Virus record (IMG/VR): IMGVR_UViG_2917403263_000006 | Coordinates: 1 to 11,826 of that record | Reading direction: 5' to 3' (one strand) | DNA length: 11,826 nucleotides | DNA from: a virus | Taxonomy: Duplodnaviria; Heunggongvirae; Uroviricota; Caudoviricetes | Shown here: one piece after another, positions 1 to 10,833 of the stretch | Numbering within the stretch: the first letter of the stretch is position 1 | How the letters are laid out: every line of letters starts with the position of its first letter | Notes under the pieces: generated by a model | Databases searched by the model: none | Seen by the model: the letters and a program-made list of their open reading frames with translations, nothing else | Told to the model about the DNA's origin: nothing | Program-made: the position numbers and the translations under genes

Positions 1-173
1 ATGGGGATTATGCCGAATAATGTTGGGGGGTTTGGGGATGTGAAAAGCGAGTTTAGTGTTTTTGAGGAATGAATTATTGCCATTGCAAAAAAGGATGATG
101 GAACTAAATAAATGGTTAGGCCATGAAATTTTGAAATTTGAGACATATATACTTAGCTAATTGCCATTTTTTA

Positions 174-229: not shown

Positions 230-1315
230 CTAACGTTTCAACCAAAGGTCATCTACAGAAAACGAATCGAATTCATTCTCAGATGGAGAATAAATAAAGC
301 TCACTGTAAAATACGGTCTAACCAAAATCTCTAAAGTCACAACGTCACCATCACCATGAGTAAATGGGAATGCCGAATCTAAATCGCTTTTATTTTCAAT
401 ATAATCCAAATAAGGAATATCCACTTCAATAAAAACCCGTCTCAAATTAAAAGAATAGGCAATGTAATATTTATCCGCATCAATTGAAGTGATGCCTTCA
501 ATATAGCCATCCTCGAAATCTTCGATGACATCAACTCTAACATCCAAAACATTCGAAACTCTAGACTCAAAAATATTATTTTCAAGGTATTGACTAAGCA
601 TCATGTGATTAAAACTTGATAAATAATCGATACACTCACCTTCTAGAAACTCCTCGAAATAAGGCTCACTTCTTGCATGATCAAAAGCATGGATACTCTT
701 ATCAATAGATGATGTAACGAAGTCAAATAGCTTCCGATATGGAGTTATTTTTTGTGTTATGCCTAACTCTTCAATATCTCTTAGAAGATCATCATTAAAC
801 GTTGCAGGACCTTTACTGTTGGTAAAAAAGTCTGAGCTATTCTCAGTAATAAATACAAAATCATCATTACCCCCTGATGATTTGATATATTGAAGAAAAG
901 ATAACCAGATCAACGTATCACGGTATCCTTTTTCTTGTTCTGAGAAAGGTTTTATCTTTTCAAGGGCCCTACCAACCACCTTAGCATGTGGAATATCGTT
1001 ATAATCTATTAAAATTAAATTATCAACTTCCTTATTTAATATTTCTTTCAAATCATATTGTTCAATACCTAAGTTTTCAATTTTAAAATCTATTGGATTC
1101 TGATTAAGCTTTTTAATTTTACTAATAATGGAACGCATTTCATTTAATTGATTTTTGAGCTCTCTATTCCTGATATTGTTAGTCTCCTCAATTACTAAAT
1201 TTGATAATAACAAGTCGTTACATTCATTATTCAAAAAATGGAAAAGAAGTTTAAAATTAGCATTTTTAGCAAACCAATTATTGTAAAATATATTTGTATC
1301 CAAAAAAACTTTCAT
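230..1315 (-). CDS. Hypothetical cargo protein with N-terminal PIN-like nuclease domain and about 190-aa C-terminal extension of unknown function
   Basis: 361-codon ORF, ATG at 1315-1313, TAG at 232-230. N-terminus MKVFLDTNIF matches the first acidic motif of PIN domains (hhhDTNhh), with further acidic positions (VIEE, ILIDYND, FVFITENSSDF) at PIN-like spacing. Strongly AT-rich relative to the phage backbone. A TATAAT -10 hexamer lies on the - strand at 1357-1352. Confidence 0.6.
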   Translation of the reverse strand: MKVFLDTNIFYNNWFAKNANFKLLFHFLNNECNDLLLSNLVIEETNNIRNRELKNQLNEMRSIISKIKKLNQNPIDFKIENLGIEQYDLKEILNKEVDNLILIDYNDIPHAKVVGRALEKIKPFSEQEKGYRDTLIWLSFLQYIKSSGGNDDFVFITENSSDFFTNSKGPATFNDDLLRDIEELGITQKITPYRKLFDFVTSSIDKSIHAFDHARSEPYFEEFLEGECIDYLSSFNHMMLSQYLENNIFESRVSNVLDVRVDVIEDFEDGYIEGITSIDADKYYIAYSFNLRRVFIEVDIPYLDYIENKSDLDSAFPFTHGDGDVVTLEILVRPYFTVSFIYSPSENEFDSFSVDDLWLKR

Positions 1316-1838: not shown

Positions 1839-2669
1839 TTAATTTGTCCCATCACTAAAGAATTTGATTGCGTCAGTTAGTACATAGTCAATGAAAATTT
1901 TTACGTGGAAGACCTGAAAAACGCTATTTTCTGAGTTTTGAATGAAATCTACAGCTATATCTTTTAGGTTGATCAACCAGTTATATTCTTCAATCAGTCT
2001 AGTTCTGGCATCCGCATCAGAATAACGACTCCGTAAGCTAAATGCCAGTTTCCTCATGATAACTGGATCAAGTTTCCTATAGCTTTCAATGAAAACATCA
2101 GCAGGAACTAAGTGTAAAAAAGGTACGTCATGAAGATTTAACTGTCTATTATTAGAATGACTCAATTCAGATAACAACGATGATTTTCCCCTTTGTAACT
2201 CATCTCTGAACTGCAATGCAAATTCCGAAATTGATTCATCAAACCGTTTCTTCCTTGCTATTTTAATATGTTCAATAATGAGCTTAAAGTCATCACTATC
2301 CCTGTCAAGAAAACTTAAACTACGCCATCCCCTTAATTCGTTATAATGCGTTTGCGCATATTCCTTATGTACATCTTCAGCTCTCAGTCTATTATAATAA
2401 TTATTTATATTCTGTTTTGTCTCATTTATGAGATCATGAACATCATCTGTTGTTAGACCTTCTTTCGCCATTTCCAGCAAAATACTCGCTGTCATCAGGA
2501 GTTCACCTAAGGTAGTGATCTTACCTGAAAATAGGTTATCCTTAGCAATAGCGTACTGCTCATAAAGCATAGTTTCATTTAGTTCTCTATAGTTCCACAA
2601 ACACCTCCATGCTGGTGAATCGCTGCTTCTAAAAAAAACGCGTAACATCCAACTGAGCAAGAAGATCAC
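1839..2669 (-). CDS. Hypothetical protein, predicted largely alpha-helical; either a separate partner gene of the upstream NTPase or its C-terminal continuation across a frame break
   Basis: 276-codon ORF (first codon GTG at 2669; internal ATGs at 2648 and 2570 have weak RBS), TAA at 1841-1839. It overlaps the NTPase ORF end by 41 nt, across an A8 run at 2631-2638. Same AT-rich composition as the NTPase ORF. No recognisable catalytic motif. Confidence 0.5.
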   Translation of the reverse strand: MIFLLSWMLRVFFRSSDSPAWRCLWNYRELNETMLYEQYAIAKDNLFSGKITTLGELLMTASILLEMAKEGLTTDDVHDLINETKQNINNYYNRLRAEDVHKEYAQTHYNELRGWRSLSFLDRDSDDFKLIIEHIKIARKKRFDESISEFALQFRDELQRGKSSLLSELSHSNNRQLNLHDVPFLHLVPADVFIESYRKLDPVIMRKLAFSLRSRYSDADARTRLIEEYNWLINLKDIAVDFIQNSENSVFQVFHVKIFIDYVLTDAIKFFSDGTN

Positions 2670-3732
2670 CCGTTACCTTTCCATCACAGATTAGTTCTCT
2701 CCAAGACGCGCCATCCAGTAACTTCTCGGTTAATACAGGAGACGAATATTTCTCGACAATCATGTCATACTTACTTTTGACGCGTTCTTTACCCAAAAAC
2801 ATACCATAATTAACATTGCCGATTGAATTGAAATCCTCGTAGCTAAGATTCCCTCCCCGGTACTCCATCGAAAAAATTAACAATTGATGAAAAAACACCC
2901 TTATAAATTCATCGTTACTTAAATATTTATCTCCCAAAAGGGAAATAATTCGTTGTACATCGAGAAAGAACTGCCTCAAGTGTCTTAGATTATTATAATT
3001 CGCTGACACATAGAGGTCCTCTATTGTCTGCATATCTTCTTTAAATATATTAGCAACATGCAAACTACTAATTACGCTCAAGAAAATCTTACAAGCACTA
3101 TGTAAATCTGACGTTACTTCAAATGTTTTACCTACTAGCTTTTCTTTTGTTCTCATGTATTCATTGCGATATTTCTCATCATCATTATTTATTCGCTTTT
3201 CTCTATTGATTATTTCATCTTCATTGGCAACCAAGATCGCTTTGTATCCGTTTACTTCCACAAAGTGATTTATATATCCAAATAAGATTGGTAAATCTAC
3301 ACCAGCTCTCTCGACATCATCAAAGACCAGCACAAAACCATCTGGTTTTCTAGTAAAGTCGCTAAGATTAATGGTGGGAACATTGCTATTGATATCTACG
3401 TCAGATTTATTATCGCCATTAAGATCGATCTTGAAAGTAGCCTTAAGCGTATTTTTTAGTACATTTGCACCAAAGATAAGGGCTTTGTTTGATAGGACAG
3501 GATGCAATTGACGATAGAACTCATCTTCAATCTGCTCAATAGAGTTGACGCCATACAAGCTCACTTTTAGAAATTTGAACTCTGAATGTTTCTGCTTATA
3601 TTCTTCAAGAACTCGTTCAATGAACCAAGTTTTACCTGATCCCCAAGCACCTTTAAGCATAATGGCGTATTGAGGTTCAGTTTTAAGGCTAAGGTAATAT
3701 TCTATATAGTCTTTGATGTACGTATTGTGCAT
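2629..3732 (-). CDS. P-loop NTPase, KAP-like (Walker A GAWGSGKT near the N-terminus; Walker B-like VLVFDDVER)
   Basis: ORF with ATG at 3732-3730 (the track ORF starts at an upstream TTG at 3783), TAG at 2631-2629. LKGAWGSGKTWFI fits the KAP-family G-x-W-G-S-G-K-S/T P-loop signature; VLVFDDVERAG fits the KAP hhhhDD-x-(D/E)R Walker B pattern. No obvious transmembrane segment. AT-rich. Candidate -10 TATAAT on the - strand at 3847-3842. Confidence 0.65.
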   Translation of the reverse strand: MHNTYIKDYIEYYLSLKTEPQYAIMLKGAWGSGKTWFIERVLEEYKQKHSEFKFLKVSLYGVNSIEQIEDEFYRQLHPVLSNKALIFGANVLKNTLKATFKIDLNGDNKSDVDINSNVPTINLSDFTRKPDGFVLVFDDVERAGVDLPILFGYINHFVEVNGYKAILVANEDEIINREKRINNDDEKYRNEYMRTKEKLVGKTFEVTSDLHSACKIFLSVISSLHVANIFKEDMQTIEDLYVSANYNNLRHLRQFFLDVQRIISLLGDKYLSNDEFIRVFFHQLLIFSMEYRGGNLSYEDFNSIGNVNYGMFLGKERVKSKYDMIVEKYSSPVLTEKLLDGASWRELICDGKVTGDLLAQLDVTRFF

Positions 3733-4053
3733 TTTTAGTCCATTTTTATAAAATACATAAACATAGATGGTAAGTAGAGCCAAAGGCCAACTATGGAAAA
3801 TTCAATCGGTAGTGTACATTGTAAGGTTATTATTGGTAAATATTATAGGAATACCCATAATCTTACAAAATTCAGATTATCCGTTGCAAATTAGTCTGCC
3901 ATTCGTTAATTGACGAAAGATAGCAGAAGAAATGTTCGCTTCTGGCACAAAGCGGACGATCACTTATAAAAATGACCGCCCACCTTACGCCTTATTTCAC
4001 TCATTGCCCAAACTAGCCCCCATCAGAATGAATCCTCCTGGGGGCAACATTTC

Positions 4054-4287
4054 TTAATGCTGCCAGCTGTCGTCTTCCCACACCTTCTGCATAATTTTCA
4101 TCACTTGTTTTCTTTCTTCGTCCAGTTGCAGTCCGGTAAGTTCCACACCGTGAGAGCTACCTTTGCGGATACGAATTACCGTTTTGGGATACAGGGGGCG
4201 CAGATTGCGGTAAAGCTCGGATTCAAGGGCGTCCAGGATAGACTGGCTAATCTTCTGCTCTTTATCGATCATTATTTCAATGCGCAT
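4054..4287 (-). CDS. DinI-family protein; likely the C-terminal DinI-like domain or short product of a Tum-type SOS-inducible antirepressor
   Basis: 77-codon ORF, ATG at 4287-4285 preceded by GGTGA with 5-nt spacer, TAA at 4056-4054. MRIEIMIDKEQ...KIMQKVWEDDSW resembles E. coli DinI (MRIEVTIAK...ILQETWES). The frame is open upstream into the 4298-4486 ORF region. Confidence 0.7.
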   Translation of the reverse strand: MRIEIMIDKEQKISQSILDALESELYRNLRPLYPKTVIRIRKGSSHGVELTGLQLDEERKQVMKIMQKVWEDDSWQH

Positions 4288-4297
4288 AAAAGTCACC

Positions 4298-4486
4298 TCA
4301 ACTGATGACATCCATTGAGCGGTTGTATTCGTGGGTTCTGATTTTTGCCATGAGTTCATCAGTCAATTCAGAAACCCACTGCAAAGCCAGCCCCTTCTCT
4401 TCATCACTACACTCACTAGCCGCTACAAGCTTAAGAAAAAAATCAATGCGCTGGAGCTTCAAAGACTCCAAAAAATAGTCCTGCAT
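4298..4486 (-). CDS. Small ORF (62 codons), probably the N-terminal part of a tum-like antirepressor gene, separated from the DinI-like ORF by a frame break
   Basis: ATG at 4486-4484 preceded by GGAGG (4-nt spacer), TGA at 4300-4298. LexA box 40 bp upstream. Removing one base from the T5 run at 4342-4346 fuses it in frame to the DinI-like ORF, giving about 143 aa, close to the about 146 aa I recall for phage 186 Tum. Confidence 0.5.
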   Translation of the reverse strand: MQDYFLESLKLQRIDFFLKLVAASECSDEEKGLALQWVSELTDELMAKIRTHEYNRSMDVIS

Positions 4487-4526
4487 CTTTCCTCCTATAA
4501 CACCAAAGAAATATTGTATACATAAC

Positions 4527-4546
4527 CACTGTTTATATTTACAGTA
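4527..4546. promoter_or_regulatory. LexA operator (SOS box) CACTGTTTATATTTACAGTA upstream of the tum-like operon
   Basis: CTGT-N8-ACAG core at 4529-4544 with AT-rich spacer; 17 of 20 matches to the E. coli consensus TACTGTATATATATACAGTA. It overlaps -10-like hexamers (TATACT, TACAAT on the - strand) about 40-60 bp upstream of the 4486 start. Phage 186 tum is known to be LexA-controlled. Confidence 0.65.
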
Positions 4547-4559
4547 TATAATAATCTTA

Positions 4560-4591
4560 CTGATGTAAAACGTTTTTTTTACGTTCATCAG
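4560..4591 (-). terminator. Imperfect hairpin (CTGATG...CATCAG outer stem, AACG/CGTT inner stem, T8 loop) between gene A stop and the SOS promoter; possible early-operon terminator
   Basis: Inverted repeat read directly. The U-tract after the stem on the - strand is poor (UAAGAUUAUUA), so termination efficiency is uncertain. Confidence 0.3.
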
Positions 4592-9725: not shown

Positions 9726-9814
9726 AAGGCAACATTCCTTCTAGATATGGCTTGTGGCGAGCCGTTGTTTGTCGTGATTAGTAGTGAAGGCTCCAAAAGA
9801 ACTCTTCTGGTTCA

Positions 9815-9843
9815 ACTTTAAGATCGCTTTTGGAATCTGTCAA
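9815..9843 (-). promoter_or_regulatory. pR-like early lytic promoter (-35 TTGACA, 17-bp spacer, -10 TAAAGT) firing toward apl
   Basis: On the - strand: TTGACA (9843-9838), 17-nt spacer, TAAAGT (9820-9815); perfect -35, 4 of 6 at -10. It lies inside the 5-prime extension of the long cI ORF (9784-9870), which argues that extension is not coding. Confidence 0.45.
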
Positions 9844-9870
9844 CGATTTTTGGATTTCTCTGGAGGACTC

Positions 9871-10440
9871 GTGGATTTCAATAGCGGTGGTAAGAAGGCC
9901 ATAGAACGTTTGGTTGAAGCATATGGGTTTGGTACCCGTCAGGCTCTCTGTGATCATTTAGGTGTTTCTAAGAGCACCATGGCAACACGCTATATGCGTG
10001 ATATTTTTCCGGCAGATTGGGTAATCCAGTGCGCACTAGAAACAGGCATCTCACTTCATTGGCTTACGACCGGGCATGGTTCAAAGCAAGCATCAGCAAA
10101 AACAAATGCTATAGAAGTAGTAAAATATTTATTGTCTGATGGAGACTTGCAGGAAGACGGGGTTTATATTTTTGATAAGGGATTTCTACCCTCTACGTTT
10201 AAAAATCCTTTTGTAGTCACAGTTAATAATTCTGAATTTATTTGTGATAAAGAATTTGATGATATACGTGATGGTAAATGGGTAATAAGTATTGATGGCG
10301 AAATAACAATCCGCGACATTACTCGTTTACCCGGTGGGAGAATCTTCGTTGAAGGTGGAAACAGAGCCTTCGAGTGTAAGATAGAAGATGTTGAAATAAT
10401 TGGAAAAATTATAAGTTTAACAGTTAAATATGTTAGATAA
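9871..10440 (+). CDS. cI: CI-type immunity repressor (phage 186 CI family)
   Basis: N-terminal segment IERLVEAYGFGTRQALCDHLGVSKSTMATRYMRD...CALETGISLHWLTTG matches the 186 CI DNA-binding domain (LDRICEAYGF...HCALETGANLQWLLTG as I recall it). Start placed at GTG 9871 (GGAGG 4 nt upstream), giving 189 aa against 192 for 186 CI; the track ORF starts at GTG 9784. Confidence 0.75.
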   Translation: MDFNSGGKKAIERLVEAYGFGTRQALCDHLGVSKSTMATRYMRDIFPADWVIQCALETGISLHWLTTGHGSKQASAKTNAIEVVKYLLSDGDLQEDGVYIFDKGFLPSTFKNPFVVTVNNSEFICDKEFDDIRDGKWVISIDGEITIRDITRLPGGRIFVEGGNRAFECKIEDVEIIGKIISLTVKYVR

Positions 10441-10833
10441 TACCGGGGGAAACTATGCTTGGTAAGGTATTTTTTGTGGTTTTATCATGCTCTTTGTTAT
10501 TAAACCCACTAACTACCTATGCTAAAAATTAATCCTTGTTCTGGGAAAAAGGGAGGTGTCTCTCACTGTACCTCCGATGGAAAATTTGTATGCAATGATG
10601 GGGCTATTAGTAAATCCAAAAAAATCTGTACTAAATACTCACGATAAATTTTGCTCTGATATCTGCGCCTAATATAACAATGAGGCGCAGGCTAACCACA
10701 AAAGTTACATACTCACATAACAAAAAATAGCCAACTTCATTATGGCTTCAGTGAGATGTATGGTCGCGGGATCTCATACATTGACACTGGTTATATATAC
10801 AGTAAAAATGCTCTCCACTGGAGGGCATTTTTT

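Follow-up and report, generated by a model that had tools for sequence, protein, structure and literature searches.

A close counterpart of the locus considered here is found in phage 186, whose promoter p95 is annotated with a -35 hexamer TTGCCA and a -10 hexamer TACTGT situated within a LexA box, followed in order by tum, the partial terminator t95a, the accessory gene orf97 and t95b. There is one box in phage 186, and its Tum is one undivided protein of 146 aa. In Fels-2 and PSP3, tum is split in two, and the upstream half is the antirepressor (Lemire et al., PMC3121763); the activity of the PSP3 antirepressor against its cognate CI is cited there as a personal communication only. PSP3 is annotated with the pair tumA (UV induction) and tumB (DinI-like), together with a single near-perfect LexA box. 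In Fels-2, the closest studied relative of the present locus, the corresponding genes are STM2728, a dinI-like gene and STM2726, and the mutagen MX has been reported to induce all of STM2726, STM2727 and STM2728 by 2.6 to 14.8-fold (p <= 0.01) in a microarray experiment (PMC2225428). Another report (PMC8072944) attributes to Fels-2 the lethality of a lexA null mutation in Salmonella LT2. The dinI-antirepressor operons of the Gifsy prophages and the AntC system of N15 are similar in that a LexA-repressed small antirepressor is directed against a non-cleavable repressor (PMC3121763), yet the Gifsy order is reversed, with dinI first, and the phage families and antirepressors are unrelated.

The window, by which we mean the whole stretch of 11,826 nt analysed here (IMG/VR record IMGVR_UViG_2917403263_000006), is the early and immunity region of a P2-like (Peduoviridae) prophage of the Fels-2/186 type (Table 1), with its early genes on the minus strand. 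According to the gene map, the two cargo genes therefore occupy the defence hotspot already described in P2 between gpA and gpQ (PMC9122126, PMC13586616). The first of these encodes a KAP NTPase, and a single-gene KAP-domain system, Reve, has been reported to be protective (PMC13586616). The PIN protein encoded by the second gene had no match in PADLOC or PHROGs. In relatives, the second gene that accompanies the KAP NTPase encodes instead a RES-domain protein, SIR2 plus ParA, or a hypothetical protein.

Table 1. Features of the window discussed in the text (- denotes the strand complementary to the one listed)
Feature	Position	Strand	Remarks
Portal gene Q, 3' end	about 1-148	+	
PIN_12-domain protein, second cargo gene	230-1315	-	361 aa; PF16289, 2.3e-27
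KAP-family P-loop NTPase, cargo	1839-3732	-	PADLOC candidate PDC-S49; two ORFs in the window
TATAAT, candidate -10 of a KAP cassette promoter	3842-3847	-	read from the sequence; weak -35; downstream of the hairpins
Hairpin 2	3945-3990	-	core 3983-3952, then UUUGUG; 66-nt segment -29.6 kcal/mol, z -5.6
Hairpin 1, past the dinI stop codon	4016-4045	-	51-nt segment -19.2 kcal/mol, z -2.2; no U-tract
dinI-like gene (tumB equivalent)	4054-4287	-	77 aa; PF06183, 3.6e-21
tumA-like gene, presumed antirepressor	4298-4486	-	62 aa; phrog_698, 3.6e-38; Shine-Dalgarno AGGAGG
LexA box 2, degenerate	4512-4531	-	CAGTGGTTATGTATACAATA; 15-bp offset from box 1, 5 bp in common with it
LexA box 1	4527-4546	-	20 bp; CACTGTTTATATTTACAGTA as listed, TACTGTAAATATAAACAGTG on the minus strand
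-10 hexamer TACTGT, first half of box 1	4541-4546	-	by analogy with annotated 186 p95
-35 hexamer TTTACA (p95 equivalent)	4564-4569	-	fixed 17-nt distance to TACTGT in 31 distinct promoters
Replication gene A	7056-4640	-	in three ORFs
cox/apl, cII, fil, B-like, dam		-	early genes
CI repressor, 186-type	9784-10440	+	PF07022 and PF16452; 31% identity to 186 CI
LexA box at int	10785-10804	+	CACTGGTTATATATACAGTA; 24.8 bits; in the spacer of TTGACA-17-AAAAAT (10781-10809)
Hairpin of 13 bp between the int -10 and ATG	10804-10832	+	-18.9 kcal/mol, z -5.9; flanked by an A-tract and a U-tract
int	from 10834, beyond the window end	+	
Extra bases	2631, 5689, 6747, 11636 (also 1681, 4580)		by comparison with intact relatives; mostly in homopolymer runs

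Several genes of the window are interrupted. Single extra bases, as judged against intact relatives, split the KAP NTPase, gpA and int; the KAP gene, which is intact at 1893 nt in relatives, is broken by one extra A at about 2631 inside an A-run, and its two halves cover positions 4-349 and 360-614 of the profile. These frameshifts are probably errors of sequencing or assembly. A decaying prophage was also considered as their cause and judged less likely, given that most of the extra bases fall within homopolymer runs.

The predicted LexA operator and its promoter

The sequence and the statistics bear out the near-consensus LexA box proposed in the initial annotation: CACTGTTTATATTTACAGTA differs from the consensus TACTGTATATATATACAGTA at three positions (17 of 20 identical), and both arms of CTGT-N8-ACAG are intact. 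It is the sole occurrence of that pattern in the window, where 0.14 are expected, and one of two sites with at most three mismatches from the consensus, for which the expectation from 200 shuffles is 0.00. Scored on a position weight matrix derived from 23 known E. coli LexA sites, the box reaches 23.7 bits; the median of those sites is 20.2 bits, the lowest of them scores 13.4 bits, and the best score among 200 shuffled windows is 18.9 bits. With its palindrome, its arms, its A+T-rich centre and a score within the known range, it fits the E. coli type of LexA box, and it has the same sequence as the box of Fels-2.

The promoter-like hexamers said to overlap the box are likewise real, with the qualification that both are read by analogy with p95 of 186. 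The SOS promoter escaped a consensus promoter scan because TACTGT agrees with TATAAT at only three of six positions, and the promoter is therefore defined by analogy and by conservation. An alternative -10, TATACT, would leave a spacer of 15 nt. About 50 nt beyond TACTGT come AGGAGG and then the ATG of the 62-aa ORF, so that a Tum homologue is found directly downstream of the predicted LexA-controlled promoter. As in 186, the box lies over a TACTGT -10, between replication gene A on its upstream side and the cos-proximal accessory region on its downstream side, whereas the -35 reads TTTACA where 186 has TTGCCA. The promoter region shares 96% identity with those of Fels-2, RE2010 and several Klebsiella phages, and with those of many E. 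coli prophages; with PSP3 the promoters do not align.

Conservation was examined in 33 loci encoding a relative of the 62-aa protein, fetched at one per species and ranging from Escherichia to Pantoea, Erwinia and Tatumella. A strong box stands upstream of the tumA-like gene in 30 of the 31 full-length loci, 40-97 nt before the ATG. When 31 distinct promoters were anchored on the box, the constant elements were an A-tract, TTTACA, the 17-nt spacing and the CTGT and ACAG arms, and the spacers and flanks varied; this pattern is a clear phylogenetic footprint of what is predicted to be a LexA-controlled promoter. That the box might be a chance A+T-rich palindrome devoid of LexA function could be argued from the A+T-richness of the region and from the frequency of palindromes in promoters, but this is very improbable, as none of the 200 shuffles gave a site as good, the arms are kept in 30 of 31 species despite variable spacers, and Fels-2, whose operon responds to damage, has an identical box. 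We therefore put at roughly 0.85 the probability that the site is the main LexA operator, as predicted from sequence and conservation, of a Fels-2/186-type prophage SOS promoter driving an antirepressor operon with a split tum. The box itself is a copy of an element already known from p95 of 186 and from the tum promoter of Fels-2. A prophage that is SOS-inducible via an antirepressor has been established for 186, PSP3 and Fels-2, and in this respect the result is of use for annotation and adds nothing new.

Most relatives differ from the window in having a second, overlapping box. The pattern TACTGT-N8-ACAGTGG-N8-ACAGTA occurs in 20 of 30 loci, as well as in Fels-2 (where the second box is intact, CAGTGGTTATATGTACAGTA), SopEPhi, a Yersinia phage and Klebsiella phages; a single box is found in 186, in PSP3 and in the Pantoea/Erwinia group. 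In the 20 related loci, box 2 scores 12.8-20.9 bits. In the window, it scores 10.7 bits, under every known site in the matrix set, because its distal ACAG has become ACAA (...ACAATA against ...ACAGTA). A tandem operator with both boxes in the functional range, present in 20 of 30 relatives, is thus absent in the window; the operator here is probably effectively single, with box 2 contributing little, and repression may therefore be weaker than in relatives. In one Escherichia sp. locus whose TumA is identical (L015), the G of box 2 is retained.

Two boxes with a 5-bp overlap are the layout of colicin operators. The likeness to such double SOS boxes (the ColE1 operator being an example) lies in the two boxes of the relatives with their 5 bp in common, and the difference lies in the ACAA arm and the low score of box 2 in the window. 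A second overlapping box would permit, in most relatives, a tandem arrangement of LexA as at colicin promoters.

Between gpA and the SOS promoter, just past the gpA stop codon, there is an imperfect hairpin, CTGATGAACGT-A8-ACGTTTTACATCAG (4560-4591, minus strand), whose 3' arm includes the -35 TTTACA and whose A-run resembles an UP element. No terminator was detected in the gpA-tumA interval by a home-made scan, and early lytic transcripts may therefore also enter tumA-dinI.

The split tum operon and the CI repressor

The initial annotation spoke of one tum-like gene under a 186-type SOS switch. The operon is indeed of the tum type, but the one gene resolves into two, a tumA-like and a DinI-like ORF, parted by a stop codon and 10 nt and not forming a single fused Tum of about 146 aa. 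The tumA-like protein is the same as STM2728 of Fels-2 save for the last residue. Its resemblance to residues 6-41 of 186 Tum is weak, with a Smith-Waterman score of 57 (z 9.4; none of 500 shuffles as good), and BLASTP of the 62-aa ORF gave no match to either 186 Tum or PSP3 TumA, the latter being barely similar (Smith-Waterman z 2.6). The dinI-like ORF, by comparison, is 41% identical to the C-terminus of 186 Tum (residues 71-146); in relatives, RefSeq annotates its CDS at 234 nt. Thus, where 186 has a single box and an undivided Tum, the window has a split tum, and its lineage normally has two boxes.

The CI repressor gave matches to PF07022 and PF16452 only, and none to peptidase S24, in the domain search; in relatives, a shorter CDS of 570 nt with the same end is annotated. 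By analogy with 186, this CI is the presumed target of TumA. The similarities to Tum, together with a 186-type CI lacking a match to S24 and the annotated layout, support the claim of a 186-type SOS switch, in the split form known from PSP3 and Fels-2.

The switch would be expected to operate in four steps. In an undamaged lysogen, a LexA dimer bound to TACTGTAAATATAAACAGTG would cover the -10 hexamer and the probable start site, so that RNA polymerase would be blocked. Upon DNA damage, activated RecA would bring about LexA self-cleavage and the promoter would fire. The product of tumA, the presumed antirepressor, would then inactivate the non-cleavable 186-type CI, and the dinI-like product would modulate RecA. 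Finally, the lytic promoter would be freed, leading to prophage induction.

A small terminator-like hairpin, GTCATCAGTTGAGGTGAC followed by TTTTATG (4292-4309, minus strand), spans the tumA stop codon and the dinI Shine-Dalgarno sequence. It might modulate the translation of dinI rather than terminate transcription.

The hairpin module after dinI and transcription towards the cargo

The SOS promoter is directed towards the NTPase cassette on the same strand, as had been pointed out, and the question is how far its transcripts would extend. The initial annotation recognized a weak hairpin at 4027-4048 as the sole structure before the cargo. That hairpin does exist, as hairpin 1 of Table 1 (4045-4016), but the claim that it is the only one was refuted by the finding of a much stronger hairpin at 3990-3945 that ends in UUUGUG. 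The gap between dinI and the KAP gene comprises 321 untranslated nt with two or three hairpins, one of them of -19 to -30 kcal/mol. Hairpin 2 has 21 pairs, seven of them G-U; its core, at -19.2 kcal/mol, matches t95a of 186 (-18.5 kcal/mol), and its tail scores -3.86 against -4.55 for t95a. The core energies and tail scores come from a home-made and lenient scan for hairpins with tails, whose sole check was that it recovers t95a and t95b of 186. A further small terminator-like hairpin (3954-3937) was flagged by the terminator tool.

The two hairpins form a module of about 110 bp (window 3935-4053) that adjoins dinI in roughly 211 complete E. coli genomes. The whole KAP cassette is present in 45 of these, and about 166 more match only window 3935-4043. 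Five kinds of cargo occur with the module beside dinI: besides the KAP cassette, it is followed by a convergent DUF8087 gene and then GmrSD, DprA or retron Ec67, by a co-directional DarT-DarG pair, or by a convergent gene for an ATP-binding protein. Identity extends from the dinI stop codon to ...CGCTTTGTG and then breaks at once, which makes the double hairpin the last element of the conserved backbone rather than a leader of the KAP gene. Pair counting on the module, with an outcome equal to that of its shuffle control, revealed only one-sided changes that preserve pairing and no compensatory changes; the RNA structure is therefore not proven by covariation, and the counts neither support nor refute it. 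A search of Rfam at E up to 1 returned no RNA family for the module or for any other relevant part of the window. Given the tail of three Us and the want of compensatory changes, a role in termination is read from the position of the module and from its conservation across cargo types. Since the module is kept beside dinI whatever cargo follows, hairpin 2 is probably a leaky intrinsic terminator equivalent to t95a.

Beyond the hairpins, the TATAAT at 3847-3842, a candidate -10, is invariant across three KAP cassettes, and the cargo probably also has a promoter of its own; the consensus promoter scan called no minus-strand promoter before the KAP gene. The KAP gene is co-directional with the operon and separated from dinI by a candidate terminator, a layout that again recalls 186, where a hairpin with a partial U-tract lies between the operon and a co-directional accessory gene, orf97 there as against KAP NTPase plus PIN here. 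For the KAP cassette, the most likely state of affairs is partial termination combined with a possible promoter of its own. It is possible that SOS-driven transcription passes in part into the KAP NTPase/PIN cargo, for which orf97 of 186 and STM2726 of Fels-2 offer precedents.

Two more extreme readings have to be weighed against partial termination. In the first, the module would stop essentially all SOS transcription, and the KAP and PIN genes would be expressed in the lysogen from their own promoter only. The place of the module at the end of the conserved backbone, even before convergent genes, speaks for such insulation, as do the equal core energies of hairpin 2 and t95a, the additional small hairpin and the candidate TATAAT. 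On the other hand, the UUUGUG tract is short and its tail is weaker than that of t95a, which is itself only partial as a terminator, and across 18 loci about 83% of the ORF length of the cargo points the same way as tum, a bias suggesting that read-through is tolerated or used. Complete insulation of the cargo is accordingly a serious contender, which we place a little under an even chance.

The second reading holds that one long SOS transcript extends across tumA, dinI and the hairpins and continues into the KAP and PIN genes, so that the cargo would be substantially induced by damage or by prophage induction. The same co-directional bias, with the cargo on the same strand, is in line with this, and so are the weak U-tail of hairpin 2 and the outcome of the promoter scan, which called nothing of consensus grade before the KAP gene. 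In 186, moreover, orf97 is co-transcribed from p95 via the partial terminator t95a, and in Fels-2 STM2726 begins 60 nt past dinI with no hairpin between them, the whole set STM2726-2728 being mutagen-induced. Fels-2 differs from the window in this very spacing; it is one of several relatives with short gaps between dinI and the cargo that have no such structure and in which the first cargo gene looks operonic. Yet the window has 321 untranslated nt with two or three hairpins in that place, the module is retained in the roughly 211 E. coli genomes with cargo of either orientation, the junction between backbone and cargo falls just 3' of it, as expected of an operon terminator, and a perfect TATAAT lies beyond the hairpins. 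It has also been reported that cassettes of the P2 hotspot provided defence when cloned with their own upstream DNA (PMC9122126). Substantial induction of the cargo by a long transcript thus seems unlikely, and partial termination with a possible own promoter is the reading we retain.

In the P2 hotspot studies (PMC9122126, PMC13586616), SOS, LexA, tum and dinI all go unmentioned. Coupling of the cargo to SOS has a precedent in 186 and is absent from these main studies, and it is of some value as a testable hypothesis. If the hotspot does receive SOS transcription, expression of its anti-phage cargo would rise, in thousands of enterobacterial prophages, during induction and in response to DNA-damaging antibiotics, and the conserved hairpin module would be the element that decides how much of this transcription enters the hotspot, a role that is directly testable.

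A second LexA box at int

A second LexA box, scoring above box 1, is situated in the window 30 nt upstream of the int ATG. To our knowledge, LexA control of int in P2-like phages has not been described. Conservation of the box extends to E. coli and to Klebsiella phage 4LV2017. All 80 of the IMG/VR loci that carry the integrase of the window have a box at -48 to -52, in 12 variants with conserved arms; this integrase-based search returned only copies that are 99-100% identical, and the divergent comparisons come from the ESSI2 phages and 4LV2017. In the ESSI2 phages ev129 and ev040, a canonical CTGT-N8-ACAG box, CACTGTATAAATAAACAGTA, is present at int, though the integrase is only 71-73% identical. 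Exactly two strong boxes are present in each of the genomes of ESSI2_ev129 and 4LV2017, the first at the tum position and the second at int. Fels-2 differs in that int is directly adjacent to cI there and lacks a LexA box of its own. The int box suggests that in this lineage the excision functions are also wired to the SOS response.

Taken further, the lineage might possess a LexA circuit with two operators, one at tumA-dinI and the other at an int promoter set inside an insulating terminator, together with a leak of SOS transcription into the co-directional cargo between gpA and gpQ; this composite picture is put forward tentatively, and we regard it with some doubt. If it is true, DNA damage or induction would enhance expression of the co-directional anti-phage cargo of the gpA-gpQ region, which here consists of the KAP NTPase and PIN genes.

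The hairpin that lies between the int -10 and the ATG holds the int Shine-Dalgarno sequence GGAGGG in its 3' arm. Were transcription to begin about 7 nt past the -10, its start would lie within this hairpin, and LexA-controlled transcripts may thereby escape it, whereas those coming from cI may be terminated or masked.
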